IMG/VR virus record: IMGVR_UViG_3300020042_013559 | Direction: 5' to 3' (one strand) | Length of the DNA stretch: 60,463 nt | Source of the DNA: an uncultured virus (IMG/VR IMGVR_UViG_3300020042_013559) | Lineage: Duplodnaviria; Heunggongvirae; Uroviricota; Caudoviricetes | Part shown: positions 4,901-58,495 of the stretch, one piece after another | How the letters are laid out: every line of letters begins with the position of its first letter | Position numbering within the stretch: position 1 is the stretch's first letter | The notes under the pieces: model-generated | What the model was told of the DNA's origin: nothing | The model's database searches: none | The model's input: only the letters and a program-made list of their open reading frames with translations | Translations under genes and position numbers: made by a program

Positions 4901-5397
4901 CTTTAATAGGAAAACTTTTTGAAGGTGAAGACACAGGAGCCAAACAAGAAACCTATGTAGAAAATAAAAATGAAAAAATACCTTTGCTTCAAAATCCTTT
5001 TGAAGCTTCACAAGAACAACCAAATCAGTTCATGCAATCGTTTCAATCACCAGAAAATCAAGATTTTCAATCACAATCCATGTTTCAAGTTCCGGAAATG
5101 GTTCAACCAAATGAAGCCAATAATTTATTCTCCATGGAAAAGGAATCATCGTCACCTGAAGGTTTTGGTGATGTTAAAACAGGAATCGAAGATTTAAACA
5201 AAAATTCATCTGTAAATTCAAAGATAGCAGTTGATCAACTGCGTGAAATAAAGGAATTAAACAAAAAAATGGAACAACTTGTTGCACAATTAGCATCTAG
5301 TAGAGCCATGGTTGTTAATAACGTTAGAAACAGTTCTGTTAATTCATTCCTTCAACCATCCACAATAAATAGTTTCAGAAGCTCATTCAGAGAATAA
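1999..5397 (+). CDS. Tail tape-measure-like protein (gp29 position)
   Basis: 1132 aa, amphipathic helical, hydrophobic segment LLAALAFLTGFIAGFISEVIV, three tandem repeat families; between hub genes and a gp48-like gene. Confidence 0.75.
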   Translation: MTSEESILFLGKTAQKLDQLASAFLEVKLRQEEASEKDRKAKEKKPSRKDGKEMARDEKGRFQRKEIKISEPSQNLKMLAEIEKESKKQNKLNLQEKAPKVAENLTSTERKRWENIGTILGTAFKKIFEGRQKVTRQKGTGKEIQDLEFIENEKLEKKKTSFFKILLAALAFLTGFIAGFISEVIVKLKQIFVLVKSFLAGFRGNFLKLLEAIKNSKLGRFVAQTFEALKSKFFGIIEEIKNSKLGKFVAQTFEALKSKFFGIIEEIKNSKLGRFVAQTFEALKSKFTNIINQINNSKLGRFVTETFEALKNKFFGIMQEIKNSKLGNIVADIFQALKNKFTSIASAVGDIKIGEVVGGIFKGISTKILQIFKTIGGFFSKIGRILDVFAAGKGPLLFLEKMLAPFPKFLQFIIKGPLKMLLQVFGAGAAFGKFLLEKFPIIYFVIETIIGLFNAFTDKLMEGKSFIQKLLTGIIYGITSFVNFFEFIGLKLVDFEEVRDRVDKVFSAFKDGFFKGLLEIINQVVTFVLGMGPKVGAWIVGWFDKKWGEALYDIAKTAKNPMDMFVKWWDLTKTKVVEYITEPFKKMIDYIKGLFTQPFEVVKNFFSGAIEGLTGAFQPVLNILKDTVTFIPNFFGNLFNKVKSLFDGLDPSSILSTLKDIVGFPVHFIGNMFNKVKSLFDGLDPSSILSTLKDIVGFPVHFIGNMIDYIKGFFSNINMDSVVNGIKTFFKYTPVGLILDNIDRIKAFFTNISMDSIVSGFKTFFKYTPVGMILDNIDRIKGFFTNLSMDSIVSGFKTFFKYTPVGMILDNIDRIKGFFANINMDSVVNGIKTFFKYTPVGMILDNIDRIKGFFANINMDSVVNGIKTFFKYTPIGMILDGIDYIKGFFSNLNIDSVIKGIKQFFDYTPIGMLINNFETIKNFFGDTFGKVKNFFTFVQQKFDSIFGFIGDLLSKIFNFIRDKAKKIPLIGKLFEGEDTGAKQETYVENKNEKIPLLQNPFEASQEQPNQFMQSFQSPENQDFQSQSMFQVPEMVQPNEANNLFSMEKESSSPEGFGDVKTGIEDLNKNSSVNSKIAVDQLREIKELNKKMEQLVAQLASSRAMVVNNVRNSSVNSFLQPSTINSFRSSFRE
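2635..3040 (+). repeat. Five tandem 81-bp (27-aa) coding repeats
   Basis: NSKLG codons start at 2641, 2722, 2803, 2884 and 2965; unit IKNSKLGRFVAQTFEALKSKFFGIIEE. Confidence 0.95.
3913..4116 (+). repeat. Perfect 102-bp (34-aa) tandem duplication
   Basis: 3913-4014 reads identical to 4015-4116 (FNKVKSLFDGLDPSSILSTLKDIVGFPVHFIGNM). Confidence 0.95.
4120..4770 (+). repeat. About six tandem 105-bp (35-aa) coding repeats
   Basis: ccttcttcaa recurs at 4181, 4286, 4391, 4496 and 4601, with a diverged copy near 4706; unit FFKYTPVGMILDNIDRIKGFFxNxxMDSxVxGxKT. Confidence 0.95.
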
Positions 5398-35103: not shown

Positions 35104-36813
35104 ATGGCAAATGATATTTCTCCCGCATTATTATCAAAATTGGCACCAGAAATGAATTTGCAATTATTGCAAAAAGTAACTTCCACTCCCAATTTTGATC
35201 AAACATCCCAACAAATAAGCCAATTAAATCCTGAAAATTTAACAGCTTTGGTTCAACAAGTTCCGGCTGCTTTTGGTTTTACAAGTATTTTGGATAGTAT
35301 TCCAACGCTTCCATCAAGCAAAATATTAAACGGCCAGGTAAATCAAATAACCCAAGGTATTGATATTGTTAATCAATTTTTGGGTGCTGTAAATTCAATT
35401 CAGGGCAACGTGCAAATTCCGGATTTTGCAGCAGGAGATGTAAACATTGATTCCATTTTCGAAAATACTTTCAATCAATTAGCTCAAAGATCAGCTTCAA
35501 GTTTTTCATCATCTCAATCACAAGTAGGTTCAGTATTTCAAACTTTTCAAAATGTTTCAAATATAAGTTCTGTTTTGAATTCCATTCAAACTTCACTTCC
35601 TTCCAATATTTCACCCAAGCAAATTAGAGATTTAAATGCTTCTCCACAAAACCTTAATAATTTTGTCAATACAACTGCACAAAAAGCCAATTCGAATGTT
35701 CAAACTCAGGCAATAAGTAATGCAGTAACTTACACAAACAATGCTGCTGGAGCAAATACAACTCAGGCACAATCATCCCCAATTGTTCCAAATGCATCCT
35801 CTGGTGAGGATTTTAAAGTAAAAGCAGTTGTTACCACATATGGAAAAGGAGAAAAGGTAGGAAGTGGGGGAGACAAATGGACAGCTCGAGGTGATAGTGC
35901 AACAGGACAAGGGAACCTTGTGGAAGGAATCAGTTGTGCAGTGGATCCTTCAATCATTCCTTATGGATCTAAAATAGTTTTTGAGGATCCTCGACTGGGA
36001 ACTCGTGTTGCCATGGATACAGGTTCTGCCGTGGTTTCTCAGCAAGCAGCCAGATCCAGGGGAATATCATTGGGTAATGAAAATAATGCTCCAGTACCTT
36101 ATGAAGCAGGTAGTGGGGCAGCATCAACCGATCAAACTGTAAGAACAGGTGGAAGAGGTTCAAAATTATCAGGAAATCTGATTCTTAAAGATACAGATGG
36201 TACAATTTTAGGAAAATATAAATTTGTTAATGGTGGATCAGGACGAGGAAATATTCCTTTTGGTACATATACAGTATCCAATTATATGACTGCTCAACAA
36301 CGTCAGCAAGCAGGCAGAAGTCAAAGAGGTTCTTTAAGAGGTCAGGATACATTTGATCTTAATGATGTGTACGATCCTGTTTATAGTGATACACGTTCCG
36401 GTTTATTGATTCATCCTGCAGCAAATGCAACAGAAGGATGTATAGGAATTCAGGAAAATTGGCCGGATTTTCGTGAAAAAATGAAATATCTTATGTCCAA
36501 AAATGGAGGAAATTACAAGATTGAATTTGGTCCGGATGCAAATACGGTAAACAATCGTAATCCTGAAAGGGTTGTAACTATTGATGTTTATTTCGAAACA
36601 GAAAAGTCCCGACAAGCTTTTGAAAAAGTGATACAGAATATAGGTGGAGGAGGAACTGTTGCAGCCACAGTTCAACCTCCAAGAAACGGTGTAATTGGAA
36701 AAAATGTTCGTTCTCCTTCTGGAAGAACAACAGTAGCATATTATCCAAAAGGATATGAACGTTTTAAAAACCCTAGCAGTGAACAATTGCTTAAAGCTGC
36801 AGGATTAATATAA
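35104..36813 (+). CDS. Tail-associated muralytic protein: 3D domain interrupted by a Tlde1/DUF2778-like L,D-transpeptidase-fold domain
   Basis: TTYG...CAVDPSIIPYGS...AMDTGSAV, then GNIPFGTYTV...RSGLLIHPAANATEGCIGI, then TIDVYF; directly before gp5. Confidence 0.75.
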   Translation: MANDISPALLSKLAPEMNLQLLQKVTSTPNFDQTSQQISQLNPENLTALVQQVPAAFGFTSILDSIPTLPSSKILNGQVNQITQGIDIVNQFLGAVNSIQGNVQIPDFAAGDVNIDSIFENTFNQLAQRSASSFSSSQSQVGSVFQTFQNVSNISSVLNSIQTSLPSNISPKQIRDLNASPQNLNNFVNTTAQKANSNVQTQAISNAVTYTNNAAGANTTQAQSSPIVPNASSGEDFKVKAVVTTYGKGEKVGSGGDKWTARGDSATGQGNLVEGISCAVDPSIIPYGSKIVFEDPRLGTRVAMDTGSAVVSQQAARSRGISLGNENNAPVPYEAGSGAASTDQTVRTGGRGSKLSGNLILKDTDGTILGKYKFVNGGSGRGNIPFGTYTVSNYMTAQQRQQAGRSQRGSLRGQDTFDLNDVYDPVYSDTRSGLLIHPAANATEGCIGIQENWPDFREKMKYLMSKNGGNYKIEFGPDANTVNNRNPERVVTIDVYFETEKSRQAFEKVIQNIGGGGTVAATVQPPRNGVIGKNVRSPSGRTTVAYYPKGYERFKNPSSEQLLKAAGLI

Positions 36814-41115: not shown

Positions 41116-41372
41116 TGAAATTCAACGATACCATCCAAAAGCTTTTGGAAGATTTTAATATATATCCTCAACCAAAAATTCCTGGAACATATCAAGGCAA
41201 AAATATTGATTGGGGTCGGAGTGGAGCCACTCCTTCTGGATTTAAAGGAGACAGTTTCAACACAAGCAGCAGTCAGATAATATTCTCTTTGCCTGTTAAA
41301 AACAAAAAGAAAAAGAAAAAATCACTTAATATTCGTAAAAAACGTGTGTCGACCAATCGTGTTGGTCGCTGA
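41115..41372 (+). CDS. Small protein with basic C-terminus, possible internal head protein
   Basis: ATG at 41115 overlaps upstream TGA; MKFNDTIQKLLE N-terminus; poly-Lys tail. Confidence 0.55.
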   Translation: MKFNDTIQKLLEDFNIYPQPKIPGTYQGKNIDWGRSGATPSGFKGDSFNTSSSQIIFSLPVKNKKKKKKSLNIRKKRVSTNRVGR

Positions 41373-41867
41373 AGCTTCTCTATTTTTACCTCCAAATTTA
41401 GGATTGCTCCATTTTGGTGAAACTTTGCTGGGTCCACTTGTGACATGATAATGAGTTGCTCCTCCTGTCAAATCCTGTAATTTTCCACGCATTCCAACAA
41501 TTGCCAGTTCTTTTGCTTGTGCCCAATATGGATGTTTTGCCGCTTTATTTATAATATCCTGCATTTGCTCTTTTCCGTCATTATATTCATTAAAAAAACT
41601 AAATTGTTTTGGTTTTAAAACAACATTAACTGCACCTCGAAATGGATCACCACCTTTTACCCTGTTCATGATCACATTCATAACTGCTTGCATGCCTTTC
41701 TCACCTTCACCTCCTGCCTCGCCAATAAGGGCAGCTGCCACAATGTCACTGTAATGAATAGGTGCCTTTTGCTGCTGTATATAAGCTGCTGGCGGTGCTG
41801 GTATTGGCGGGGGAGGGGGTAGATCAGCTTCGTTTAAAAGCTCTTTTACACGGTCATTAAACTGCAT
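41322..41867 (-). CDS. Cell wall hydrolase, SleB/Hydrolase_2 family lytic transglycosylase
   Basis: LIGEAGGEGEKGMQAVMNVIMNR, QFSFFN, DLTGGATHYH, IGRHTFF. Confidence 0.9.
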   Translation of the reverse strand: MQFNDRVKELLNEADLPPPPPIPAPPAAYIQQQKAPIHYSDIVAAALIGEAGGEGEKGMQAVMNVIMNRVKGGDPFRGAVNVVLKPKQFSFFNEYNDGKEQMQDIINKAAKHPYWAQAKELAIVGMRGKLQDLTGGATHYHVTSGPSKVSPKWSNPKFGGKNREASATNTIGRHTFFTNIK

Positions 41868-41869
41868 TT

Positions 41870-42355
41870 TTAATATTTATAAACACTGACAGTAACAATT
41901 TTAGGATTATTATATGCAAAAATCATGGCATCGCTCTTTTTTTCAAAAAATACATCTATAACAGGCAATTTTCCACCACTTGCCTTTTTACCTTTGACTG
42001 CTGTTCCTGTGTCATGAGCTACTCTAAGCCCTAAATTTGGTATGTATAAACGCTTAAAAAAGGGTATCAAACGAGGATCTACTGCTACGCTCACACCTTC
42101 TTTTAATGTGGCTCCTGTATAACTTCTTTTCTTTGCACTATCTTTGTCTGTATCGCCTCCTTTTGCCCAATATGTTGTTAATCGTACTTTTACAGTTCTT
42201 TCAACAATCAATTTTTTTACAAAATTATCCATCATTTTATCCATTGTGAAGCAAACAAACTTATCAACTGGATTGGTTGTTGTCTTTTCTTTGCTTTGCA
42301 GAATAATATTATATAATATTCCAGCAATGAGTATCAAATATGCTATTTTCTTCAT
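41870..42355 (-). CDS. Exported or membrane-anchored 3D-domain protein (MltA-like lytic transglycosylase core)
   Basis: N-terminal hydrophobic stretch; LTTY, VAVDPRLIP, AHDTGTAV, VIDVFF give the three aspartates. Confidence 0.85.
   Translation of the reverse strand: MKKIAYLILIAGILYNIILQSKEKTTTNPVDKFVCFTMDKMMDNFVKKLIVERTVKVRLTTYWAKGGDTDKDSAKKRSYTGATLKEGVSVAVDPRLIPFFKRLYIPNLGLRVAHDTGTAVKGKKASGGKLPVIDVFFEKKSDAMIFAYNNPKIVTVSVYKY
41874..41881 (-). promoter_or_regulatory. Late promoter TATAAATA (SleB-like hydrolase)
   Basis: 6 nt before ATG 41867, embedded in the end of the upstream gene. Confidence 0.7.
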
Positions 42356-42948
42356 GTTCGTGTGTCCTCTCTTATAGGATAATAAAAGTCCACTTGTTTA
42401 TAAAGCTTATTGCAAAAAAACATGGGTTTGTCAAGCTTATCTGAAGCTGCATATAATCTATTATTTCTTTTAAAAATAACTTCTATATGTCCAGGTCTGC
42501 CTGAACTTTTTGGTTGATAAACAGCAATGACCAATGTGTTTTCAGGCAAATTTAAAACATCATTTTTGCTTATCTTTTCAAAATCTTTACGACTTTGAAA
42601 CACTGTTTTGTAGTTTTTGGCATAAAGTATCTCGTTGCTGGATGTGGTGATTGGATATGTTTGCCTTCCAGCTCTTCCTTTAACAATTCCACCTTCCCTC
42701 AGATCCAATTGAGGAAAAGCTTTTTCATTGCGTTCATGCAGATTGTCTAAAAGAGCAGTGGTGAATTTGGCGCATACGCCACTGCTATAGTTTCTGGTAA
42801 GTTTATTCACGTCCATCATGAATGTTTTAAATTCATTTGATGTTAGATTTGGCTGCAAACCTTTTTTTGTTGGAATTTGAACTGAAATATCATGAAACCC
42901 ATTTACTAGGCTCAGGGCTAAAGCTGTGGCTAAGATGGTTTTTTTCAT
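42352..42948 (-). CDS. Secreted CHAP/NlpC-P60-like cysteine amidase or peptidase
   Basis: Signal peptide MKKTILATALALSLVNG; SGVCAKFTTALL (Cys) and PGHIEV (His). Confidence 0.65.
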   Translation of the reverse strand: MKKTILATALALSLVNGFHDISVQIPTKKGLQPNLTSNEFKTFMMDVNKLTRNYSSGVCAKFTTALLDNLHERNEKAFPQLDLREGGIVKGRAGRQTYPITTSSNEILYAKNYKTVFQSRKDFEKISKNDVLNLPENTLVIAVYQPKSSGRPGHIEVIFKRNNRLYAASDKLDKPMFFCNKLYKQVDFYYPIREDTRT

Positions 42949-42962
42949 AATAAAGAGATCTG

Positions 42963-42989
42963 ATTATAACAGATCAAAAGGTTTGTAAA
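42963..42989 (-). promoter_or_regulatory. Sigma70-like promoter for the exported hydrolases
   Basis: TTTACA-N15-TATAAT with TG extension. Confidence 0.65.
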
Positions 42990-43049
42990 GAATATCTTTA
43001 CAAAATAAAATTTTTTTTGTTAATAATATTTATCTTTAGCAAACAAATC

Positions 43050-43583
43050 TCAAGCAGTTTTAAGAAGATTTTGAATATAATTGCGTAGATTGTTATTTCT
43101 ATTGGTCCAACCTTTGAGAAATACTGCCAATTTTGGACGATTTTCTGCCAAATTATTATAAAAAGTCTGGCGTTGATCAATTATGCCATATGCAACATCA
43201 ACAGAATCTTTTTTACTCAACAGACTGCGTGTATAAGGACCAACAATACCATCAGCAGTTGCACCCACCACACGTTGCAGAAACTTATTGGCCTGCTTTC
43301 TGCCTGTGTTCACAACGCTATCAAAAAAGCTAATGTATGCAGGATAAGGTATCAGATAAGCACTGCTTTTCAGCCAATAATCTTGCCAGAAAATTTCATC
43401 TGCCTGTTCCCTTGTTAAATTTTTTATGTCTAGCAACGGATAATCACGTTTGGTAATTCCGAATTGGGTTTCTCCCCCAGGATCCGCAACGTGATTATAA
43501 TATCCGCCTTCAGCTTCCCGCACAAACTTCATGGCCGTTTCAAACTCTGAACTTTTGTCCGGAGTTATTTTAAAATCGTTCAT
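43050..43583 (-). CDS. Endolysin, glycoside hydrolase family 108 with PG-binding domain
   Basis: EGGYYNHVADPGGETQFGIT, FDSVVNTG, LQRVVGATADGIVGP, FLKGWTNR. Confidence 0.93.
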   Translation of the reverse strand: MNDFKITPDKSSEFETAMKFVREAEGGYYNHVADPGGETQFGITKRDYPLLDIKNLTREQADEIFWQDYWLKSSAYLIPYPAYISFFDSVVNTGRKQANKFLQRVVGATADGIVGPYTRSLLSKKDSVDVAYGIIDQRQTFYNNLAENRPKLAVFLKGWTNRNNNLRNYIQNLLKTA

Positions 43584-44268: not shown

Positions 44269-44393
44269 GCAAACTGAACACAGTTCAAAATGGTAAAGGA
44301 AGCAAACCTCGCAATATTAGCGAGAAGTTTCGGCAAAATTATGAAAAAATCCGTTGGGATGGAACCAAACGGAAAAAGACCAAATCAGTTTGA
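44265..44393 (+). CDS. Small basic phage protein (not in the ORF track)
   Basis: 42 aa MSKLNTVQNGKGSKPRNISEKFRQNYEKIRWDGTKRKKTKSV; GTGA overlap with upstream stop; fills the intergenic gap. Confidence 0.6.
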   Translation: MSKLNTVQNGKGSKPRNISEKFRQNYEKIRWDGTKRKKTKSV

Positions 44394-44630
44394 TGCCTGT
44401 TGCTGACGAGCCCGATCATTCAACTCTTTGTTGAGGCGAATGACCCTGTTAGGAATCACATCAATCTTGTTCATCACACTTCCACCACTGATAATGGTGG
44501 TAGGAACAATGGTCAGATCATTCAGCTTGAGCAAAGCATCCAGCTTTGTCAACACCTCTTGAATCTTTTCCTGTTCATCATTTGTGGGTTCGAACTGTTT
44601 TGGGTCAATATCAGAAGGTAGTTTATTCAT
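44385..44630 (-). CDS. Hypothetical protein
   Basis: 81-aa ORF at the end of the glycosyltransferase operon. Confidence 0.6.
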   Translation of the reverse strand: MNKLPSDIDPKQFEPTNDEQEKIQEVLTKLDALLKLNDLTIVPTTIISGGSVMNKIDVIPNRVIRLNKELNDRARQQQASN

Positions 44631-44638
44631 GTATAGAT

Positions 44639-45301
44639 TTATTTTCTTGTTTGGTTTGTCAAGCTATCATAATAGCTTTTTTTCACAAAAGTAAGATCGC
44701 CACCATCCTTGAAACTGCTGGCACTGTCAAAAAGAAGAGCAAATCCGCTTTTTTCCAAAAAATCAACGTATTCAGGCGTGAGCATGTTTCCTTCATAACT
44801 TTCAGTATTGTGTGTTTCAGTGTGAATAAAATTGGCCATTTTTAAAACATTTGGACTATCTTTCAAAACAATCGGTTCATAACCTTGCATGTCCAGCCAC
44901 ATATAATCAATTTTATTTATATTTTCATTTTTTACAAAATCATCCAATCTTACAGTTTTTACATTTATTTTTTCATCAAAAGTTATTCTTTGGTAATATT
45001 CCAAATGCAGCTTGGGATTCAAAAGACTGCTGCTGCCACAATTTTTGCCATATTCAAACGCCACATGCATCTGCTGTTCACCATTATTATCAGACAATGC
45101 CATATTATATAATTTTACGTTCTTTTTGTTTTTAATTTTTCTTAAAGTCTTTTCATAAAGAGCAGGTACTGGTTCAAAGCTGTATATCATGCCGTTGGGA
45201 AACATGTTGCTCATCATTACCGTATCCTCTCCATCACAAGATCCTGCCTCAATGATCACAGGATCTTTGAGATATTTGTACATGAACTGATGTGGTGTCA
45301 T
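44639..45301 (-). CDS. FkbM family SAM-dependent methyltransferase
   Basis: IIEAGSCDGED, YSFEPVP, NMALSD, GSSSLL, LDDF, WLDMQGYE. Confidence 0.92.
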   Translation of the reverse strand: MTPHQFMYKYLKDPVIIEAGSCDGEDTVMMSNMFPNGMIYSFEPVPALYEKTLRKIKNKKNVKLYNMALSDNNGEQQMHVAFEYGKNCGSSSLLNPKLHLEYYQRITFDEKINVKTVRLDDFVKNENINKIDYMWLDMQGYEPIVLKDSPNVLKMANFIHTETHNTESYEGNMLTPEYVDFLEKSGFALLFDSASSFKDGGDLTFVKKSYYDSLTNQTRK

Positions 45302-46680
45302 TTTTTTAACATTTTAAGCCAAAGATTAAAATTACCATTCCACTTTTTGGTTCCCACATGCGAACAGGTCATTTCATCATCCAGATATATTTTCTCGCCA
45401 CTATCCTGCCATTTTTTGCAAAAATAAACATCTTCACTATAAAAGTTGCCATCCACTATTTTTGTTTCAAAAACATTACGATTATCCTTGTCTTTTTCAC
45501 TATCATATTTTTCGCTCATGTTCCACATTTTATCAATAGCACGGCGGCTCAAACGCATGAATCCGGTTCCAATGCTGTCCACTTCAAGCAGTCCAGTATT
45601 TTTATCCCGGGGAATGGGCCATTTCAAGCATTTTATATTATAACTTTCAGCATCTCCTTTTTTGACCACAGGACAACCTGCAAAATCAACAGGATGCATC
45701 AACAATCGAAGAAACTGTTCAGGTTGCCATTCCTGATCGCTATCCACAAAAACCAGATCATCAATATGGCTCATGTATGCTGTTTTAAAAATATCGTTCC
45801 TGGATATTTGCAATAAACTTTCATAACAGATGTGAAAAGGCAAAACTTCAATACCATTTTGAGCACACAATTTGATGGTATTGATAACCGAGTGCAGGTA
45901 CACAACTTCCACTTTTCCGTCATGACTGGGAGTTCCCAGCATCACCCGACGGGGTCTGTTTTGATCAGATTGTGCTGGAGCAGATTGTTGCGGATTATCA
46001 AAAATCTCTACATATTTTTCCCAATGTGTTGCTTTTAAATTGTTGATGGCATCCTTATGCATTTGTTCATAATTTTCAGTGTTGGTTTGTTCACCCACAT
46101 GATGCACATATGCACGAGAAGCAAATAATTTATATCCATGATTCAGCATTTCTGAACATATGATATTGTCGCTGTACCAGTTAGTAGGAGGAAAACCTTT
46201 TGTTTTTTGAAAAGCTTCCCGGTCTATAAGAAGAAAAGCTGGACCAATCACTTCCACTGGTTTAACAGAATATTCACTGTTCCATTTTAGATTTTTTATA
46301 AAATCATTTGGAGCAGGAAATCTAATGTTATAAGAAGGCAAACAATAATCAGATCGGGCTCCCAGCATTCCCACATTCTCTTTTTTAAGACTGAACCAAT
46401 CTTCTGTTAATAATTTGAAACAATCAGGAGTCAAAACCACATCATCATTGACCAATATGGCTTTGTTATATTTTTCAAAAACACTGTTTAATATCAGATT
46501 GAATGATTCGCCTGCATTTTTTCCAGTGTTGGGAATGATTTGTTTGATCAGTTTTGAATCATATTTTTCATTGCTGCAAAGATATACTTCAGCGTTGGGA
46601 ACATACTTTTCAACACTTTTCAAAAAAACCTCAAAATGAGGTTTGATTTTTGTAACACAAACAGCAATAGGAATGTTCAT
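45298..46680 (-). CDS. Two-domain glycosyltransferase (two fused GT-A/GT2-like domains)
   Basis: Domain 1: LVNDDVV...YSDNIIC...VHHVG; domain 2: VMLGTP...SRN...FVDSDQ...IGTGFM...SEDVYFC...CSHVG. Confidence 0.88.
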   Translation of the reverse strand: MNIPIAVCVTKIKPHFEVFLKSVEKYVPNAEVYLCSNEKYDSKLIKQIIPNTGKNAGESFNLILNSVFEKYNKAILVNDDVVLTPDCFKLLTEDWFSLKKENVGMLGARSDYCLPSYNIRFPAPNDFIKNLKWNSEYSVKPVEVIGPAFLLIDREAFQKTKGFPPTNWYSDNIICSEMLNHGYKLFASRAYVHHVGEQTNTENYEQMHKDAINNLKATHWEKYVEIFDNPQQSAPAQSDQNRPRRVMLGTPSHDGKVEVVYLHSVINTIKLCAQNGIEVLPFHICYESLLQISRNDIFKTAYMSHIDDLVFVDSDQEWQPEQFLRLLMHPVDFAGCPVVKKGDAESYNIKCLKWPIPRDKNTGLLEVDSIGTGFMRLSRRAIDKMWNMSEKYDSEKDKDNRNVFETKIVDGNFYSEDVYFCKKWQDSGEKIYLDDEMTCSHVGTKKWNGNFNLWLKMLKK

Positions 46681-47567
46681 GAAAGCTTTTCTAAATGATG
46701 AATAATTTCATCTGCATTAAACAATTTTTCAGTGTTGTAATTGCTGGGACAAGCATAATTGGGTCCTTGCAAACCAAAGCTGTCCAGATAACCTTCATAA
46801 TTGCTTTCACTAAACAGATCTAGTTTTGTGGTGATGTTGTCGTGCAAATCATAACCAAAAACCTTGGGAGTATTGCCCACCCAACAAACCACACTGGGCG
46901 TGTCCATGGCTGCAGATGCATGCTGGGCAAATGAATCAATAAACAAACGTTTTTGTGTTAACGGAATCAATCCGAATATGTTGCGCAAACTGAGTGCAGG
47001 ATCAATGGTGTTGGGCAATGAAAATTGTTCTTTGTATTTCAAATGAAAAATAGCATATCTTTTGTGAAAATGATTCACAATCTTTTCTGCCAAGTTGTGA
47101 GGCAAATCCCGGAACCATGAAAAAGGAAATTGATTGTTTTGCACAGCTCCTCCGCATGTTTGCAAAAGCATGATGGGACGACCCACATTTTTAACGTACA
47201 TGTATATCTCTTCCCGTTCCAACGTGGTCAAATATATGCGAGGACTGGTGGCAATATAAGGAATATCAAACATTTCACACCAAACCTGAGAAAGAAACAT
47301 ATTTTTTTTAAAATATCTGCCGTTGCTGTAAGGTTCATCTTTTAATACAAGTGTGTCCTTGTCTTTGATAAAATCATCATGAAAATAAGGAGTGTTTCCT
47401 ATCCTATAAAATCTATGAATATGTGGATTATGCAACCAAACATCTGGCCATGAAGCAATTACAATAAGTTTACTATCGGGATATTTTAATTTTATATTTT
47501 CTGCAACAACAGTGGCTTGTATATTTTTTCCAATACCACCCTCCACATGAAAAACGATATATTCCAT
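46677..47567 (-). CDS. GT-B glycosyltransferase, GT9/heptosyltransferase-like
   Basis: GGIGKNI, IKLKYPDSKLIV, FIDSFAQHASAAMDTPSVVCW, FGYDLHDNI. Confidence 0.8.
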   Translation of the reverse strand: MEYIVFHVEGGIGKNIQATVVAENIKLKYPDSKLIVIASWPDVWLHNPHIHRFYRIGNTPYFHDDFIKDKDTLVLKDEPYSNGRYFKKNMFLSQVWCEMFDIPYIATSPRIYLTTLEREEIYMYVKNVGRPIMLLQTCGGAVQNNQFPFSWFRDLPHNLAEKIVNHFHKRYAIFHLKYKEQFSLPNTIDPALSLRNIFGLIPLTQKRLFIDSFAQHASAAMDTPSVVCWVGNTPKVFGYDLHDNITTKLDLFSESNYEGYLDSFGLQGPNYACPSNYNTEKLFNADEIIHHLEKLS

Positions 47568-47572
47568 TCCTT

Positions 47573-47599
47573 ATTTTACAAAGGAAAATGAAAAGTAAA
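47573..47599 (-). promoter_or_regulatory. Sigma70-like promoter for the glycosyltransferase operon
   Basis: TTTACT-N15-TAAAAT, 5 nt before ATG 47567. Confidence 0.6.
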
Positions 47600-47602
47600 G
47601 GG

Positions 47603-50600
47603 TTAAATCTTGCTGCTCAGTTCTTTAACCAGACTGTATAGTTCTTGTACTGATTTGATAAGAGGAGCGATAAATTGGGCATGACCAATTGCTTGTTGAT
47701 CGATACCACCTTTCACAGTGAAATCCTGATAGCCACCAAAATCCACTCCAGTTTCATCAATAACCTGTTTAACTTGTTGAGCAACTACACCATGATGATA
47801 ACGAGTACGAATCTTGCTGCCATCCTTGGCTATTGGTACGCGACGGGTACGTTCCACCTTGCGTGTTTTGGTAACAGGAGTGCGTATTTCTTTTTGACGA
47901 GTTTTATTAACATCCACCAAACCATAAACAGGTTCTTGACGAGTACGGGTAACATTCACCAAACCATAAACAGGTTCTTGATGGGTACGGGTCACATCCA
48001 CTAAACCAAATACAGGTTCTTTAAACGTTACACCTTCTCCTAAATCTTTATCGTTATAATCAATAATTCGATTTTCTTTTTCAACATATTCTACATTTTT
48101 ATAACTAACGATTTGATTTTCTTTTTCAACATATTCTTCAGTTTTATAACTAACGATTTGATTTTCTTTTTCAGTATATTCTTCAGTTTCATGGCTGATT
48201 TGGTAATCGGTGTATTCCTCATCCTCCACAAATGTTTCTTCCACGCTATAATCTTCACGAATATCCCATTTATAATCCACTGGTTGTACTTTATTAATGA
48301 AATTAAGACCAAGTACTGTAGGACGAATGCAAGCTTTGTCGCGACAATCAGAAACACTTACAGTTCCAGATTGAGTGTAAACCGTCACGGCGGTGTTACC
48401 AAGACGAAGTTGATTGTTACCTCCGGGTTGAGCGTTATAACCAAAACCACCGCTATTACAATAATTACTAGCATTACAATGAGCATTGACTCCAAAAGCA
48501 GTGTTACAGGCTCCTGTGGTGTTGCAAAGAAGGGCTTGTTGTCCAACAGCAGTGTTGAAGTTTCCTATGGTGTTGAAATAATTAGCTTCACCTCCAACAG
48601 CAGTGTTACAGCATCCCGTTTGGTTGCAGAACAATGCCCGATATCCAATAGCAGTGTTTTCACATCCACTGGTGCTGGAAAACAATGCTTCTGCACCCAC
48701 AGCAACGTTTTCAAGACCACGGGTGTTGCAAGACAAAGCTTCATCACCCACAGCAGTGTTGTCACGACCTATGGTGTTTTGATACAAAGCTGAAGCACCC
48801 ACAGCCACGTTTTCGGTGCCAGTTGTGTTATTTTGTAAAGCTCCAAATCCCACTGCAACCAACGAAGATCCAATGGTGTTCTGATAGAGAGCATTAGTTC
48901 CAACAGCAGTATTACAAATACCAAAAGTATTTTCACGCAAAGAACCTGCACCTATTGCAGTGTTACATATGCCTCCGATATTACACACAAGACCTTCCAT
49001 TCCAAAAGCAGTGTTAGAACTTCCTGTAATGTTGTTGTACAAAGCCGTGTATCCAACAGCAGTGTTAAAAAATCCTGTTGTGTTGTAACGCATAGCAGCA
49101 AATCCAACAGCAGTGTTGTCTTCTCCTGTGGTGTTGCTAGTGAGGGCATAAGATCCAACAGCAATGTTACAGCTTCCCACGGTGTTTTCACACAAACTAC
49201 CAACTCCTATAGCAACATTGTCATTTGCTAAAGTGTTGTTATATAAAGATTTGTATCCCATGGATATGTTACAAACTCCCGTTGTATTGCAGAACAAAGC
49301 AGCAGCTCCTATGGCAGTATTATACGCTCCTGTGGTGTTGCACTCGATGGCAGAAAATCCAACAGCAGTGTTGTTAGCTCCTGTGGTGTTGAAACGCAGA
49401 GCTTCTGTTCCAACAGCAGTGTTGCTTCCTGCTATGGTGTTGCAAAATAGAGCACCTGTTCCAACAGCAGTGTTGTAGCTTCCTGTGGTGTTGCAAGTGA
49501 GGGCATTAACTCCAACAGCAGTGTTACAGGTTCCTGTAGTGTTGCAAATTAGGGAATTGGTTCCAACAGCAACGTTTTGATTTCCATAGGTGTTGCAACA
49601 GAGGGCACCAAATCCAACAGCAACGTTGTAGCGTCCTGTGGTGTTGGAGCAAAGGGAATCAGTTCCAACAGCAGTGTTATAGTCTCCTGTGGTGTTGCTA
49701 CAAAGTGATGAAAATCCCAAAGCTGTATTTCGAATGCCTGTGGTGTTAAGAGCGAGGGCATCAGTTCCAACAGCAGTGTTATTAAGTCCAGTGGTGTTGC
49801 ACTCGAGGGCATTGACTCCAACAGCAACATTTCTGGTTCCATAGGTGTTGCACTGAAGGGCATCGACTCCAATAGCAATATTAAAAAATCCTGTAGTGTT
49901 GCAACGTAGAGCATCATCTCCAATGGCAGTGTTGTTGTATCCTAAACTGTTGCACAGGAGGGCATTAGCTCCAACAGCAACGTTTTGGGTTCCTGTGGTG
50001 TTGCAATAGAGAGCATTAGGTCCAACAGCAACGTTGTATTCTCCTCCACAATTGCTGTACAAACTATATGCGCCCACTGCCGTGTTATAGTTACCGCTGA
50101 CAGCACAAACCATGCTAAATGCACCCATTGCAGTGTTGAATTGATAATTTGATCCACCACTAGCAACAGCCATGTTTGAGGCATATCCTACTGCAGTATT
50201 ATACAGGGCATGAGTATTTATGCCATTAGGAAAAGACGCATTAATGATTGCATCTCCTGCTAATGCTCTATAACCAACAGCAACATTACCTGTTGCACTT
50301 AATACTTCTCTTAAAGAGTTAGTTCCTAAACCAGTGTTTGCATTTGCATATTCATTGAGTCGCATACTTCCTTGACCCATTGTAGTGTTATCGCATGCAA
50401 ATTTGTTGTTTTCCAAAAAATTTCGGTGTCCAATAACAACATTAGAACCTGCGCTAATGGTATTAAGCATTGTAACGTTTCCGATTATTGTATTTTGTGA
50501 CAATGCACCTGTAATTTGATTTTTAGATACATCAAAACTACTAATTCCTATAACTAGGCTACGTCCAGCGGGACCTTGACGAAAGGGATTATCGTTATTT

Positions 50601-50641
50601 GCCCCGCTGCCCAGATTTGCCAATTTGCTTGCGTTGCTCAT
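47603..50641 (-). CDS. Long Cys-rich beta-solenoid tail fibre with C-terminal S74 intramolecular chaperone
   Basis: About 32 tandem 17-aa repeats NTTGxxNTAVGxxALxx; SDCRDK cleavage motif, LGLNFINKVQPVDYKW, GVVAQQV, FIAPLIKSVQEL. Confidence 0.9.
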   Translation of the reverse strand: MSNASKLANLGSGANNDNPFRQGPAGRSLVIGISSFDVSKNQITGALSQNTIIGNVTMLNTISAGSNVVIGHRNFLENNKFACDNTTMGQGSMRLNEYANANTGLGTNSLREVLSATGNVAVGYRALAGDAIINASFPNGINTHALYNTAVGYASNMAVASGGSNYQFNTAMGAFSMVCAVSGNYNTAVGAYSLYSNCGGEYNVAVGPNALYCNTTGTQNVAVGANALLCNSLGYNNTAIGDDALRCNTTGFFNIAIGVDALQCNTYGTRNVAVGVNALECNTTGLNNTAVGTDALALNTTGIRNTALGFSSLCSNTTGDYNTAVGTDSLCSNTTGRYNVAVGFGALCCNTYGNQNVAVGTNSLICNTTGTCNTAVGVNALTCNTTGSYNTAVGTGALFCNTIAGSNTAVGTEALRFNTTGANNTAVGFSAIECNTTGAYNTAIGAAALFCNTTGVCNISMGYKSLYNNTLANDNVAIGVGSLCENTVGSCNIAVGSYALTSNTTGEDNTAVGFAAMRYNTTGFFNTAVGYTALYNNITGSSNTAFGMEGLVCNIGGICNTAIGAGSLRENTFGICNTAVGTNALYQNTIGSSLVAVGFGALQNNTTGTENVAVGASALYQNTIGRDNTAVGDEALSCNTRGLENVAVGAEALFSSTSGCENTAIGYRALFCNQTGCCNTAVGGEANYFNTIGNFNTAVGQQALLCNTTGACNTAFGVNAHCNASNYCNSGGFGYNAQPGGNNQLRLGNTAVTVYTQSGTVSVSDCRDKACIRPTVLGLNFINKVQPVDYKWDIREDYSVEETFVEDEEYTDYQISHETEEYTEKENQIVSYKTEEYVEKENQIVSYKNVEYVEKENRIIDYNDKDLGEGVTFKEPVFGLVDVTRTHQEPVYGLVNVTRTRQEPVYGLVDVNKTRQKEIRTPVTKTRKVERTRRVPIAKDGSKIRTRYHHGVVAQQVKQVIDETGVDFGGYQDFTVKGGIDQQAIGHAQFIAPLIKSVQELYSLVKELSSKI
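47895..48019 (-). repeat. Three 42-bp (14-aa) repeats inside the S74 domain
   Basis: cacYaaacc at 47915, 47957, 47999; unit EPVYGLVxVTRTxQ. Confidence 0.9.
48061..48195 (-). repeat. Three 45-bp (15-aa) repeats inside the S74 domain
   Basis: gattttcttttt at 48070, 48115, 48160; unit EEYVEKENQIVSYKT. Confidence 0.9.
48473..50104 (-). repeat. About 32 tandem 51-bp (17-aa) coding repeats
   Basis: ccaacagcagtgtt core recurs with 51-bp period (for example 49461, 49512). Confidence 0.92.
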
Positions 50642-50829
50642 TTGCGCTTAACTTCCTCTACGCTAATGATTCCCCGGTGAAAAATGTTGCCGCTGGACGG
50701 ACATATCCATTGTGCCTCCCGCATAAGATTGTTGCCCACTTGACGATCCACAATCTTGGGTTTGGTCATTTCACCAGAATATGGACTGGCAATGGATTTG
50801 GGCGTAACAAATGGAATATTCTTGATCAT
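50638..50829 (-). CDS. Small late protein coupled to the fibre gene
   Basis: 63 aa; TATAAATA 5 nt upstream; stop overlaps fibre ATG. Confidence 0.65.
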   Translation of the reverse strand: MIKNIPFVTPKSIASPYSGEMTKPKIVDRQVGNNLMREAQWICPSSGNIFHRGIISVEEVKRK

Positions 50830-50834
50830 ATTAC

Positions 50835-50851
50835 TATTTATAATATTTATA
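50835..50851 (-). promoter_or_regulatory. Tandem late promoters TATAAATA (fibre operon)
   Basis: tatttata at 50835-50842 and 50844-50851; proximal copy 5 nt before ATG 50829. Confidence 0.75.
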
Positions 50852-50853
50852 TA

Positions 50854-51153
50854 TTATTTCGCGCTTTTGTACTGTTCTTGACAAACTTTAAACACCTTAC
50901 CTGGAATATTTTGTATAAAATCAATAATTTTACAATTAATTCCAATATCCAATTTATCAAAAGGAGCACTTCTTTTTTTAAGATCTGGAAGCGAAAGAAA
51001 ATGATATTCTTTTTCGTCCAGTTCAATCAAAACCCAGAATTCACCAGCAAACTTGCCTTTTAATATTGCAAAAAAATCACCTTTTCGATGTTTTTTAAGC
51101 TTGATTGTTTGAAATATTTTTGAGAGCATAACTGAAGTTTTTGATGCATTCAT
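50854..51153 (-). CDS. Hypothetical protein (start may be 51129)
   Basis: 99-aa ORF in the - strand operon. Confidence 0.6.
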   Translation of the reverse strand: MNASKTSVMLSKIFQTIKLKKHRKGDFFAILKGKFAGEFWVLIELDEKEYHFLSLPDLKKRSAPFDKLDIGINCKIIDFIQNIPGKVFKVCQEQYKSAK

Positions 51154-51988
51154 ATAGTTCTTCCCTTACCTTTTTGCTTTTATAACCCAGACTTTCAATT
51201 TTCATATTGCTCAACATGCAATTGCTTCGATGCACCCGGAAATTCATTTCATCATATGTTTTAATCTGCCAGTTGGGATTTTTAAGTCCATGTTCAGCCA
51301 TCATTTCAGATACTTCTCCGCCTCTTACTATTCCTTCGTTGCAAACATTATATGCACCATATTCCGGCTTTTTTTCCAATTTCATGAAAAAGTTGGTAAA
51401 ATCTCCCAGCATGTCCAATCCTGTTATGCTGTTTTTTTCATTTATAAGATTGTCATATTTGATTAATTTATAAAGATAGTTTTTGCTGACCACTTCGCTA
51501 TTGAAAGGAATTCTTATGCGAAATGTGTATGCATGATGATCCTCTAGCTTTTCCTCGCAAAGATGTTTGGTTTTACTGTAAAAGCTGCTGCGGTTGCTGA
51601 AAATGCCAAAATTAGGCATGTCATATTCACTATAAATTTTATCTTGATTATCATAAATGCATCCGCTTCCAATATTGATGAAAGGTATATCCAGTTCCTT
51701 ACAAACTTTGGCAATACGAACAGGAACCACCACATTCATCCAATAACAATCTTGCCAATTGTTTTCACAACCTTCCACGTTGGGACTGCCAGTATAACCT
51801 GATGCATTAATCAGATAGTTGGGTTTGCCTTTGATTAGATATTCTCGCAGTTTGTCTTCATCTTTGTAATTGAGAAAAGCTTGACGAACATTCTCAACAC
51901 TTTTAATATCACCCAATGAAATGAGTTTGCTGGTCAGATTTTTGCCTATATAACCTGATCCAAGAATAAGAACATTATCAATCATCAT
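51095..51988 (-). CDS. NDP-4-keto-6-deoxyglucose epimerase/reductase (RmlD superfamily, NRS/ER-like)
   Basis: ILGSGYIG, NASGYTGSPNVEGCE, GSGCIY, FYSKTK (YxxxK), RIRIPF, GAYNVCNEG. Confidence 0.85.
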   Translation of the reverse strand: MMIDNVLILGSGYIGKNLTSKLISLGDIKSVENVRQAFLNYKDEDKLREYLIKGKPNYLINASGYTGSPNVEGCENNWQDCYWMNVVVPVRIAKVCKELDIPFINIGSGCIYDNQDKIYSEYDMPNFGIFSNRSSFYSKTKHLCEEKLEDHHAYTFRIRIPFNSEVVSKNYLYKLIKYDNLINEKNSITGLDMLGDFTNFFMKLEKKPEYGAYNVCNEGIVRGGEVSEMMAEHGLKNPNWQIKTYDEMNFRVHRSNCMLSNMKIESLGYKSKKVREELYECIKNFSYALKNISNNQA

Positions 51989-52340: not shown

Positions 52341-52695
52341 TTGAACTATTTATCCGTGTTTTAAAAAATCTACTATTCTTTGCATTATTCTGAATTCCCT
52401 TTTCCAGTAAAAGCAAAACCACACTTTCAATGCTGTCAGTTCTCAGGCTGAAATTTCTAATGAAACGGATTCCACCATCATTTAATTCGAACATGATGTC
52501 TCCGTCAAAATCCTTGTTGCGATAGCACGTGATAAAAACACTGCTGTATCCAGGGTCCACAAGAATGGTCCAAAGACGAGGATCGTTTTTGTTGTATTCC
52601 TGAAATGTTTTCCAGACAATAAAACCATTGTCTTTGAGACGTTTCACAAAATAACTGGGTGTTCGTATCTTGTTTTTGCTTATTCTTTTATTCAT
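52291..52695 (-). CDS. Hypothetical protein
   Basis: 134-aa ORF coupled to the sliding clamp gene. Confidence 0.65.
   Translation of the reverse strand: MNKRISKNKIRTPSYFVKRLKDNGFIVWKTFQEYNKNDPRLWTILVDPGYSSVFITCYRNKDFDGDIMFELNDGGIRFIRNFSLRTDSIESVVLLLLEKGIQNNAKNSRFFKTRINSSSEKSSQEKQQKPHPVA
52347..52352 (-). promoter_or_regulatory. Late promoter core TAAATA
   Basis: 6 nt before GTG 52340. Confidence 0.65.
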
Positions 52696-56466: not shown

Positions 56467-57794
56467 TCCATTATTTCATTAAGGGTTGCTTCTGTGCTTA
56501 CCACGGCATCAATATTTTGAGTTTTTGCTTCTTCCCGAATTCTCATGGTAGTATAATCAATTGCAAAACTTGCAGTTCCAAATGCAGGTCCTTGGCGGTT
56601 TTTCTGAACACTAAGATTGATACGTCCAAGTTCTTCATCTTCTTTTTCACGCCATATGCTGAAAATACAATCGGCAGTCATGGCCAATCCCAAGCTTTCA
56701 CTCATGGTTTCCAATCCAGGATTGCTTTGATTAATGGCATTCCGGTTTAATTGTGTTGCAGTAATAACAGGAACATTGAAAATGTAGCTTACCGCACGAA
56801 GAAGTTCTGTGATATGCTTGACCTGTTCGTATGAATTGTTTCCAAAATTTGTGGCAAAAAGATTCACATAATCCACAATAATTGCATCTGGCTTGATTCC
56901 ACTTTGAACCAGCTTTTTAATATAAGCCGTAAGATTAGACACTGAAATTGTTTTAGGAGCAAATTCCTTAATGATCAACTGAGATTTGGGATTTTCCCTT
57001 ACATATTTTGCAATTTCATCCCTCAATTCATCTAATTTATGTTTTAATGAAAATGCAGGAATATTGGCAAAATTACCACAAAGACGTTTGGCATATACAA
57101 TTTCACTCATTTCCAAACTGACCAGAAGAACAGTTTTTCCCTGGGCACATATGTTACTGGCCATATTTCCAAGAACAATGCTTTTTCCCACATTGGTTTG
57201 ACCGCTGAAAACATAAAGAGCTTTTCCTTCTTGGAGAAAACCACCCCCAAGTACTTCATCAATCCATTTATATCCACTGGATATGTAATTTTCTGTCTTG
57301 GTTATTTCTGTGATAAATTTTTCAATATCTTGCAAATAGTTAAGACCCAAATCATGAGTCAAACTTATGCTGCATGCATTTTGAAATTTTTCCAGAAGTT
57401 CCGAGGTATTGATACCAGCTTTTTCACTCTGTTCAATAACTTCCATGATGGTGTTACCAACAGCTTTTTCTTGAAGAAATAGTTCTGTATTTTCATATAA
57501 TTCTTTTATGTTTAAATTTTTGTCTATTTCATTGAAACTTTCAACGACACTTTTCCAAGATTGTTTTTGTTTGTCTGTTACAAGATATGTTTTTATTTCT
57601 GTTATGGTTGGTGATTCATTTGTTTTTTTATAAAAATCAGTAATAATTTCAATTATATTTTTTATATTTTCATTGCTGAAATATTCTGGCTTCAGATATT
57701 CAACAATCGTTCCAAGATATGAAGCATCTAACAGACACTTGTATATGATAAGTGGCTCGAATGCATTATGATCGATTTTTTTTATTTTGACCAT
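56463..57794 (-). CDS. gp41: Replicative DNA helicase (DnaB-like)
   Basis: GQTNVGKS, SLEMSE, IIKEF, IVDYVNL, TATQLNR, SESLGLAMTAD, KNRQG; ATG at 57794 preferred. Confidence 0.95.
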   Translation of the reverse strand: MVKIKKIDHNAFEPLIIYKCLLDASYLGTIVEYLKPEYFSNENIKNIIEIITDFYKKTNESPTITEIKTYLVTDKQKQSWKSVVESFNEIDKNLNIKELYENTELFLQEKAVGNTIMEVIEQSEKAGINTSELLEKFQNACSISLTHDLGLNYLQDIEKFITEITKTENYISSGYKWIDEVLGGGFLQEGKALYVFSGQTNVGKSIVLGNMASNICAQGKTVLLVSLEMSEIVYAKRLCGNFANIPAFSLKHKLDELRDEIAKYVRENPKSQLIIKEFAPKTISVSNLTAYIKKLVQSGIKPDAIIVDYVNLFATNFGNNSYEQVKHITELLRAVSYIFNVPVITATQLNRNAINQSNPGLETMSESLGLAMTADCIFSIWREKEDEELGRINLSVQKNRQGPAFGTASFAIDYTTMRIREEAKTQNIDAVVSTEATLNEIME

Positions 57795-58495
57795 TTTTGT
57801 AAAAACCACTTTTGACCATTTTGCCAAACCGGATCATTATAATCGCGCAATCCTGGGCTGGCATGCATAACCCATATGGGCCAAATTCCTATTTTATAGG
57901 AATACTTTTTAGCCTGTAAACATATGTCCAAATCAGTATAATGGGTATGACATGGATTTGTTTCATCAAACCTGAAATTTGAATTGATTTTAAACAGCTT
58001 TGTACGAAATGCCATGAAAAGGTTGTCAATCAGATCCACTTCATACGGAGTGGCACCAAAACTGGTCATGAAAATGCTTTTGCCATGGGGATGAGCAACT
58101 GCGCCTCTAAGATTTTCCCTGTCACACATTAAATGCCACAATGCAGGAGATCGAATCACAGGATTGATACCTCCTGCCAATCCTATAACATCATAATTGT
58201 TTTCTCGAGTGGCTTTATGAAGCTTATGAATGATTCTTAAATCATCAATATAAACGTCATCATGGATAAAACATATAATATCATGGCTATCCATGTATTT
58301 TTGGACTGCACGATTATAAACAACACACAATTTATCGGTGTTGTTTTCGATTATCTCATACTCAGCGTCTGGGACTTTGCTTATGCTTTTTAGAAATGAA
58401 GTGCCTTCTTTGCTTCCACGAGTAGCGCTAATGAAAATGACTTTTTCATTCTTTTGCTGCTTCTGTATCTGCGTCTGCGTATTTGTAGGCGACAT
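57782..58495 (-). CDS. GT-A glycosyltransferase-like protein
   Basis: VVYNRAV, CFIHDDV, IGLAG, RFDE, HYTDLDICL, HASPG. Confidence 0.8.
   Translation of the reverse strand: MSPTNTQTQIQKQQKNEKVIFISATRGSKEGTSFLKSISKVPDAEYEIIENNTDKLCVVYNRAVQKYMDSHDIICFIHDDVYIDDLRIIHKLHKATRENNYDVIGLAGGINPVIRSPALWHLMCDRENLRGAVAHPHGKSIFMTSFGATPYEVDLIDNLFMAFRTKLFKINSNFRFDETNPCHTHYTDLDICLQAKKYSYKIGIWPIWVMHASPGLRDYNDPVWQNGQKWFLQKWSK

Follow-up and report, generated by a model that had tools for sequence, protein, structure and literature searches.

The fibre cassette

The window analysed here is a stretch of 60,463 nucleotides from an uncultured tailed phage (Caudoviricetes; IMG/VR record IMGVR_UViG_3300020042_013559) and forms the second half of a virus record of 122,463 bases that is 58% complete. 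Its genes for capsid, sheath, baseplate and replication are T4-like, in agreement with an earlier note on this DNA that had called the phage T4-like, and its capsid protein is at most 34% identical to that of any cultured phage. Our subject is the region 44639–51988, in which that note had seen a fibre gene among sugar-handling enzymes and proposed a virion glycosylation system; all the open reading frames (ORFs) it named exist where it placed them, on the minus strand. We suggest that the fibre gene and the enzyme genes behind it form a swappable cassette that probably glycosylates the phage's own fibres.

The cassette begins, in the direction of transcription, with the gene for the fibre (47603–50641), a protein of 1012 residues with cysteine-studded repeats and an S74 chaperone, which is the proposed acceptor. 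It is followed on the same strand by the genes for a GT9-fold (GT-B) glycosyltransferase (GT) of 296 residues with an invariant lysine, Lys14 (46677–47567), the proposed priming enzyme; for a 460-residue fusion of two GT-A domains, residues ∼1–232 and 240–460 (45298–46680), proposed to extend the chain; and for an FkbM-family O-methyltransferase of 220 residues (44639–45301), proposed to cap the glycan. An 81-residue ORF (44385–44630, minus strand) that has no Pfam match travels with the cassette; it stands behind FkbM in the relatives L217 and L218 and was not seen in the remaining islands compared. Immediately upstream of the fibre is a 63-residue core ORF (50638–50829, minus strand), the left border of the swappable slot, whose stop codon overlaps the fibre start. 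Two T4-type late-promoter-like boxes (TATAAATA; 50835–50849, minus strand) head this ORF, the fibre and the enzyme block.

The fibre and its cysteines

The fibre contains about 36 repeats of 17 residues; the spacing of the 35 that are motif-anchored is exactly 17 residues in 31 of 34 cases. The repeat region is 5.1% cysteine, and 33 of the 35 cysteines of the fibre precede the chaperone motif. The C-terminus is a Peptidase_S74 chaperone (E 4e-6; 27.4 bits against a cut-off of 22), and residue 764 (window 48352) marks what we take to be the S74 cleavage motif, at which the chaperone is presumably cut. A short N-terminal motif is common to the fibres of the slot, and homologues are annotated as tail fibre or spike. 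A PDB sequence search with the fibre gave no match. The earlier description of a 1012-residue, Cys-rich β-solenoid fibre stands as regards its length, repeats and cysteines; the β-solenoid fold is suggested by the repeat and by Atlas neighbours that carry S74 or YadA-head families.

A second Cys-rich fibre, a paralogue with 54% identity, is encoded ∼60 kb away with no GT adjoining. Its site, outside the window (G000:C1:42509-48927), comprises a 1095-residue fibre, an assembly chaperone and the 899-residue paralogue, directly before primase. Within the S74 chaperone of the window's fibre, residues ∼800–945 (window 47800–48250) form a long nested-repeat insert in which three units out are matched by three back; there are two plus two units in the paralogue and three plus three in the fibre of L217, and the insert resembles a hairpin whose two arms have grown in parallel.

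The 17-residue repeat family to which the fibre belongs was scanned with a pattern neutral to cysteine at the variable positions, in 2 of the 64 parts of the collection, and proved bimodal: 96 ORFs are Cys-free (4 cysteines in 694 repeats) and 12 are Cys-rich (154 in 250). The cysteines occupy variable positions. A stacked-disulfide arrangement was considered and found unsupported, with 46 stacked Cys neighbours observed against 51.8 after shuffling and hence no excess.

These features bear on another possibility, in which the virion glycans are attached to Ser, Thr or Asn and the cysteines serve for cross-linking, metal binding or some other modification. The fibre holds 30 NxS/T sequons, and TibC, in the parts of the source that bear on it, modifies Ser of a repeat β-helix (PMC4358343). 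The sequons are, however, part of the repeat in the Cys-free family as well, and no HMW1C-like enzyme is among the fold matches listed. The NTT motif is equally common in the Cys-free family and so does not track the enzyme, and the missing sign of stacked Cys pairs also speaks against this possibility.

The GT9-like enzyme

The GT9-like protein has no match in a Pfam search at E 0.01, PF01075 included, and the RfaQ model fits it only at E 0.021 and 13.7 bits, far below the cut-off of 467. PDB sequence searches with the protein and with its family alignment gave nothing useful; a fold search succeeded. The predicted model (mean predicted local distance difference test score, pLDDT, 84) finds its best matches in GT9 structures by Foldseek and structural alignment, with Z scores of 23.9 for 3TOV, 21.1 for WaaF and 19.6 for TibC and WaaC, and the earlier assignment as a GT9/heptosyltransferase-like GT-B enzyme is borne out in this way.

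The C-terminal donor-binding motif (Asp211, Ser212 and His216) is the same in all 19 family sequences that were aligned. Lys14 is likewise invariant in the alignment, and Cys97 is the sole invariant cysteine. Among 61 distinct matches the residue at position 14 is Lys in 54 (one of which escaped the pattern and was read by eye), Arg in one and Asp in none, the other six being without the motif. By weak hidden Markov model alignments, and not by residue-level superposition, Lys14 corresponds to the Asp of a Gly-Asp motif in WaaF, 3TOV, the GT9 enzyme of the relative G001 and a group of TPR-containing enzymes. The candidate catalytic base of TibC is Asp-110, according to the relevant part of PMC4358343, and the portion of PMC10891094 on SenB, a GT-B enzyme, proposes that it needs no base to glycosylate a selenol. 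The missing Asp and the Cys-rich neighbours described below would together fit a thiol acceptor.

The conservation also bears on whether the protein is an enzyme at all. The slot could be a recombination hot spot for late cargo, in which the Lys-type protein binds or chaperones Cys-rich fibres and catalyses nothing; plant NDH complexes contain chains of the GT9 fold, which we presume to be non-catalytic, and tandem paralogues that lack the motif exist. We think this very unlikely, given that the donor-binding motif is invariant and that the gene is constantly paired with sulfotransferase or methyltransferase genes, a sulfotransferase being present at 44 of 47 viral loci, usually downstream of the GT9-like gene. 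The sulfotransferase was itself considered as the enzyme that tracks cysteine and was dropped, since the window and L040 are without it and one adjoins a Cys-free fibre.

Tandem pairs of GT9-like genes are seen in Saccharibacteria-type and Chitinophagaceae-type bins (L311:4865-6921, L313:5067-6903, L316:41-1850, L304:4305-6975 and L310:4278-7020), and in three of these the Gly-Lys motif has been lost from the first copy.

Association of the enzyme with cysteine-rich proteins

The 47 viral loci of the GT9-like family fall into 20 groups, 17 of them with a fibre in view. In 14 of these 17 the fibre has a Cys content of 2% or more, compared with 7 of the 66 control contigs (nominal p 2e-8, kinship ignored); 8 duplicate loci, the control L124, which carries the enzyme, and the 3 enzyme groups that show no fibre were left out of the count. 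A Cys-rich repeat protein is also the neighbour at 11 of 15 cellular loci, 7 further loci having none in view. The cellular carriers include archaeal, Saccharibacteria and Chloroflexota bins (which may be contaminated); in a quick tree their Cys-linked enzymes spread over several branches, and the repeat types differ.

The same pairing recurs in phages that are cultured or known from single cells. Of those picked by fibre similarity, the cultured HTVC111P (31.6 kb) has cysteines in the repeats of its fibre, gp52, and the next gene, gp53, is a Lys-type member (E 2e-28); AG-345-L05 likewise combines a Cys-bearing repeat fibre with a Lys-type member. No GT9-like member was found in Venkman, CRP-1 or SPO1, which have 0, 0 and 1 cysteines in strict repeats. 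In the cultured S-CAM3 and P-SSM2 an Arg-type member stands directly or two genes behind proteins of 8–12% Cys, in P-SSM2 immediately after one of 10%. Cys richness goes with the Lys/Arg enzyme even where the repeat types are unrelated, which argues against acceptors on Ser, Thr or Asn.

The double GT-A protein, the methyltransferase and the epimerase

Both domains of the double GT-A protein also occur elsewhere on their own, as separate proteins. The C-domain gave a good model, and its DxD motif, Asp313-Ser-Asp315, is invariant in 66 of 66 sequences. Its best match both by sequence profile (E 0.0035) and by fold (2.9e-9) is A197 of Sulfolobus turreted icosahedral virus (STIV), followed in the fold search by LH3, COLGALT1 and GalNAc-T. 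STIV A197 presumably acts in capsid glycosylation. The closeness of the modelled domain to a viral enzyme, and then to protein-glycosylating enzymes, supports a target on the virion. The N-domain is poorly modelled (pLDDT below 50 over residues 77–152) and gave no match in a PDB search, yet Asp79-Asp80 is invariant in 9 of 9 sequences and its profile matches that of the C-domain at 91.6%. The earlier reading as a fused double GT-A enzyme is secured for the C-domain by fold and DxD motif; the N-domain is probably also GT-A, on the strength of the Asp-Asp motif and the profile match.

The methyltransferase was correctly named: it scores above the cut-offs of both PF05050 (E 2e-19; 70.6 bits against 22.7) and TIGR01444 (80.6 bits against 37.7). 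Upstream of the fibre lies the gene for an NRS/ER-type 3,5-epimerase/4-reductase of 297 residues (51095–51988, minus strand), the predicted last step to nucleoside diphosphate (NDP)-L-rhamnose and a possible donor supply. Its nearest structures are plant NRS/ER (4QQR, 5e-27) and the mimivirus enzyme (7JID, 1.5e-13), matches to bacterial RmlD being weaker (5e-7 and 2e-4), so that the rhamnose-pathway assignment is confirmed in the form of a predicted NRS/ER-type activity. It precedes the fibre, as had been stated, in that it lies upstream on the same strand; two small core ORFs intervene, one at 50854–51153 in this minus-strand neighbourhood and the 63-residue ORF at the slot border.

A swappable slot in a conserved lineage

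Relatives of the phage were gathered by way of the helicase, epimerase and primase. The slot is the stretch of 6 kb after the 63-residue ORF, beside the replication genes, and 12 complete islands were found in it: 3 with enzymes, and 9 with low-Cys fibres and no enzymes. Pooled fibre Cys contents are 2.2–3.4% in the enzyme-bearing islands and 0.75–1.34% in the others. The island of L218 equals that of the window. In L217 enzymes 97–99% identical to those of the window stand behind a different fibre allele, which still has 3.2% Cys. In G001 the slot holds three propeller fibres with FkbM, GT9, GT25-like and GT8-like genes, unrelated to those of the window (best BLAST E 0.77).

A third cassette occupies the second fibre site. 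It consists of a TPR-GT9-like gene, a GT2 gene and two methyltransferase-bearing genes, one with GT17, and is present in 9 of 9 relatives with 72–75% primase identity and upstream DNA in view, 2 of which show the first gene only; a search of the window's 58%-complete genome for its genes gave no match. Its Asp-type TPR-GT9 enzymes adjoin fibres of 0.5–1.4% Cys. There are therefore three unrelated GT-plus-methyltransferase cassettes, all beside fibre genes, within one lineage, and the check that had been proposed earlier, whether the GTs co-occur with fibre genes in relatives, has turned out positive. Since Asp-type cassettes adjoin low-Cys fibres, fibre-linked GTs do not need cysteine, which favours Ser, Thr or Asn as acceptors; the fibre linkage and the late boxes described below are shared by that reading, which on balance we hold to be rather unlikely. 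The 9 enzyme-free islands had been taken as phages without fibre-linked GTs, an interpretation dropped because this part of the lineage has the TPR-GT9 cassette at the second site. Among these relatives no single contig was seen with both fibre sites.

A variable fibre region that carries GTs can also be read as acting on the host. The enzymes would then remodel host lipopolysaccharide (LPS) or capsule, blocking other phages or stopping progeny from sticking to debris, and would co-vary with the receptor-binding fibres. Published accounts, as far as the sections concerned go, interpret in this way the GTs in SAR11 myophage fibre islands (PMC7029224) and the cell-wall genes of cyanophages (PMC12801897). 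No membrane segment was found in any of our enzymes, the highest 19-residue hydropathy being 1.21, as the earlier note had said of membrane anchors. WaaC/WaaF-type enzymes are likewise soluble, and the missing anchors are therefore no argument against LPS; GT9, GT8 and GT25 are, by general knowledge, LPS-core families. On the other hand, the window's GT9-like family is without the Asp of WaaF, and in the archaeal, Saccharibacteria and Chloroflexota bins (with the same proviso of contamination) it lies beside Cys-rich repeat genes and not in waa clusters; these groups, to our knowledge, lack LPS. The late-type boxes also speak against action on the host surface, which would leave the link with cysteine unexplained, and we consider it clearly unlikely.

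The epimerase and the GT-A of 237 residues at 57782–58495 (minus strand), between uvsX and the helicase, behave differently from the cassette. The latter was rightly identified as a further GT-A gene (PF13712, E 5e-12, above the Pfam cut-off). Both belong to the fixed content of the replication module and persist whether a relative has other fibres or none, and in some distant relatives RmlA/RmlB stand beside one or the other without a following fibre. They are lineage core genes, outside the fibre block, and the notion of one four-GT system built around the fibre is not supported in that form. The two core GTs, this one and a GT-B in the replication module, may have another target, perhaps DNA.

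Their position recalls DNA hypermodification by the GTs, epimerase and methyltransferase together. Phage GT-A/GT-B enzymes paired with epimerases add sugars to 5-hydroxymethylcytosine, according to part of a preprint (bioRxiv 10.1101/2023.12.21.572611). The cassette is absent from 9 of the 12 islands and tied to fibres; the thymidylate-synthase family is present in 1 of 29 records, a distant genome only; TET/JBP was found in 0 of 29, though the control also matched nowhere. T4 β-GT is not among the fold matches listed for the GT9-like protein, in keeping with the earlier statement that no enzyme here resembles a T4 DNA glucosyltransferase. DNA as the target of the cassette is most improbable.

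Three observations concern the distant relatives and G001. In the former the 63-residue ORF is found close before primase, and for this reason the two fibre sites may be the end points of an ancient rearrangement. In one of them (L061:5897-9988) a QueC-like gene, a glutamine amidotransferase domain and a GNAT gene lie between uvsX and the core GT-A, the product of which they perhaps tailor. An intein with a LAGLIDADG domain (L069:6026-7567) interrupts a gene of G001 and G003 (513 residues, compared with 172 in G002).

Late-promoter-like boxes

The sequence TAAATA, which we take to be a T4-type late promoter, lies at most 22 nucleotides from 29 of the 117 ORF starts of the genome, including those of sheath, tube and head-assembly genes. 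It is kept in 12 of 12 near relatives both before the 63-residue ORF and before the 120-residue ORF (box at 52347–52352, minus strand) that leads into, and overlaps, the epimerase gene, and in 5 of 5 relatives before the TPR-GT; none was found upstream of the GT at 57782. The block from fibre to FkbM is predicted to be expressed late. A scan for σ70 promoters was at chance (26 against 28.3), and no early promoter is claimed for that reason. Before many start codons (window 31185, 30303, 39958 and other late genes) TAAATA stands only 3–15 bases away, which leaves no room for a ribosome-binding site, so that late transcripts may be leaderless.

A proposed model for fibre glycosylation

We think it likely that the cassette modifies the virion, through Cys, Ser, Thr or Asn, and give about an even chance to the specific proposal that it glycosylates the phage's own Cys-studded fibres on cysteine. 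Fibre and enzymes would be made together from the late box at 50835–50849, where the motif is observed and the timing deduced. In the host cytoplasm the Lys-type GT9 enzyme would place the first sugar on variable, probably exposed repeat cysteines; its fold, its lysine and its co-occurrence with such repeats are observed, and a thiol acceptor may need no Asp base. The two GT-A domains would then extend the sugar and FkbM methylate it, families that are observed in an order suggested by chlorovirus A064R. The S74 chaperone, by what is known of its family, would fold the fibre before being cleaved off at the motif seen in it. The cassette would act in trans on the second Cys-rich fibre, encoded ∼60 kb away, and the core epimerase may supply NDP-L-rhamnose.

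Several observations weigh against this proposal. In 3 of the 17 viral groups, and at 4 of the 15 cellular loci, the enzyme is accompanied by fibres or neighbours of less than 2% Cys, and the controls of that comparison are mostly smaller phages, with kinship ignored in the counts. P-SSM2, which has the enzyme, also has a Cys-poor 17-mer fibre 9 kb away. A reverse search from the repeats, which took 50 of 135 pattern loci, 47 of them searchable, detected the enzyme on one of the 7 Cys-rich contigs and on none of the 40 Cys-free ones (all but 4 less than 90% complete). In G037 and G034 Cys-rich fibres lie near other GT families, with no GT9-like member in the fragment, and in G001 an Asp-type GT9 enzyme adjoins fibres of 2.2% Cys. 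The GT-A C-domain occurs by itself, surrounded by metabolic genes, in one close relative (L052, 78%), and beside Cys-free fibres in 4 contigs. No match to heptose-pathway genes, RmlA or RmlB was found in the 58%-complete genome. The alignments that equate Lys14 with Asp are weak, and the repeat cysteines are presumed to be exposed from their positional variability. The negative searches among these are soft, because tblastn missed true family members (those of HTVC111P and P-SSM2).

G037 (L212:6402-19272, L213-L214), which has a similar capsid, encodes three giant fibres of 1572–2533 residues and 5–6% Cys together with a run of ∼12 GT-like and sugar genes; no Lys-type GT9 is present in its 51-kb fragment.

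A wider generalisation is tentative, and we incline slightly against it. The Lys/Arg-for-Asp branch of GT9 could be a protein S-glycosyltransferase with which aquatic phages, as well as some bacteria and archaea, coat their Cys-studded repeat fibres, the lineage swapping fibre-plus-glycan cassettes. Lys-type enzymes would pair with Cys-rich fibres and Asp-type enzymes with low-Cys fibres, and the glycans, capped with methyl here and with sulfate in most relatives, would amount to a virion 'serotype' system.

Other features of the genome

Three consecutive wall-hydrolase-type genes (Hydrolase_2, 3D domain and GH108) lie at 41322–43583 of the window, with a further 3D domain in 35104–36813. The tape-measure-like protein at 1999–5397 (1132 residues) has two sets of near-identical internal repeats. 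A tandem pair of LCIB-type carbonic anhydrase genes (PF18599) is found at G000:C1:26438-28293.

Comparison with known systems

GTs in fibre islands are already known, as is virion glycosylation in mycobacteriophages and giant viruses; in the open-licence literature we found no report on the GT9-like family or on S-linked virion glycans in any virus. GTs in aquatic T4-like fibre islands have usually been taken, without test, as host-surface or DNA modifiers. The association of Lys/Arg-type GT9 enzymes with Cys-rich repeat proteins points instead to the virion and to an S-linked sugar, and names HTVC111P, S-CAM3 and P-SSM2 as cultured test systems. If it holds, it would change the count of such genes as 'LPS' auxiliary genes and would provide an enzyme with which the cysteines of proteins could be densely glycosylated.

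One parallel is TibC/AAH (PDB 4RAP). The predicted model of the GT9-like protein shares its GT9-type fold (Z 19.6; root-mean-square deviation 2.9 over 261 aligned residues), and in both cases the gene adjoins one for a repetitive β-rich protein, TibA/AIDA-I there and the fibre here. TibC, however, has an N-terminal β-barrel (residues 1–97), whereas the 296-residue enzyme aligns from its first residue to TibC 94–387; it has a four-Cys iron finger, which the family, with Cys97 alone invariant, does not; and its Asp-110 is replaced by Lys14, an equivalence reached through the WaaF/3TOV alignment and not by superposition on TibC. TibC/AAH enzymes form a dodecamer and use ADP-heptose as donor and Ser as acceptor; searches for the heptose pathway gave no match in our incomplete genome. 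The GT9-like enzyme is not a member of the AAH/TibC group. WaaC, WaaF and 3TOV are similar in fold and in the C-terminal donor-binding motif, and differ in sequence (8–14% identity, no PF01075 match) and in the Lys for Asp; the GT9-like gene, moreover, is not in an LPS cluster. Though it falls outside both TibC and PF01075, the GT9-like enzyme likely works like TibC.

STIV A197 (PDB 2C0N), the top profile and fold match of the GT-A C-domain, is a single-domain protein of an archaeal virus. Chlorovirus PBCV-1 A064R, in the parts of PMC9614988 devoted to it, is a soluble viral GT-GT-methyltransferase set by which a virion glycan is capped, and mimivirus L780, treated in the same source, is an NRS/ER-type rhamnose enzyme like the one matched here through 7JID; both belong to eukaryotic viruses, with N- or O-linked glycans. 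Mycobacteriophage GTs glycosylate their own virion proteins, as cited in a passage of PMC12619734, there at the C-termini of capsid and tail tube proteins and here, by our proposal, on repeat fibres encoded in a swappable cassette and with a possible S-link. The pelagimyophage host recognition cluster and the cyanomyophage cell-wall genes share with our phage the T4-like, aquatic setting and the hypervariable region of fibres and GTs; in the sections of PMC7029224 and PMC12801897 that deal with them the GTs are read as modifiers of host O-chains or DNA, whereas the evidence here points to the fibre.

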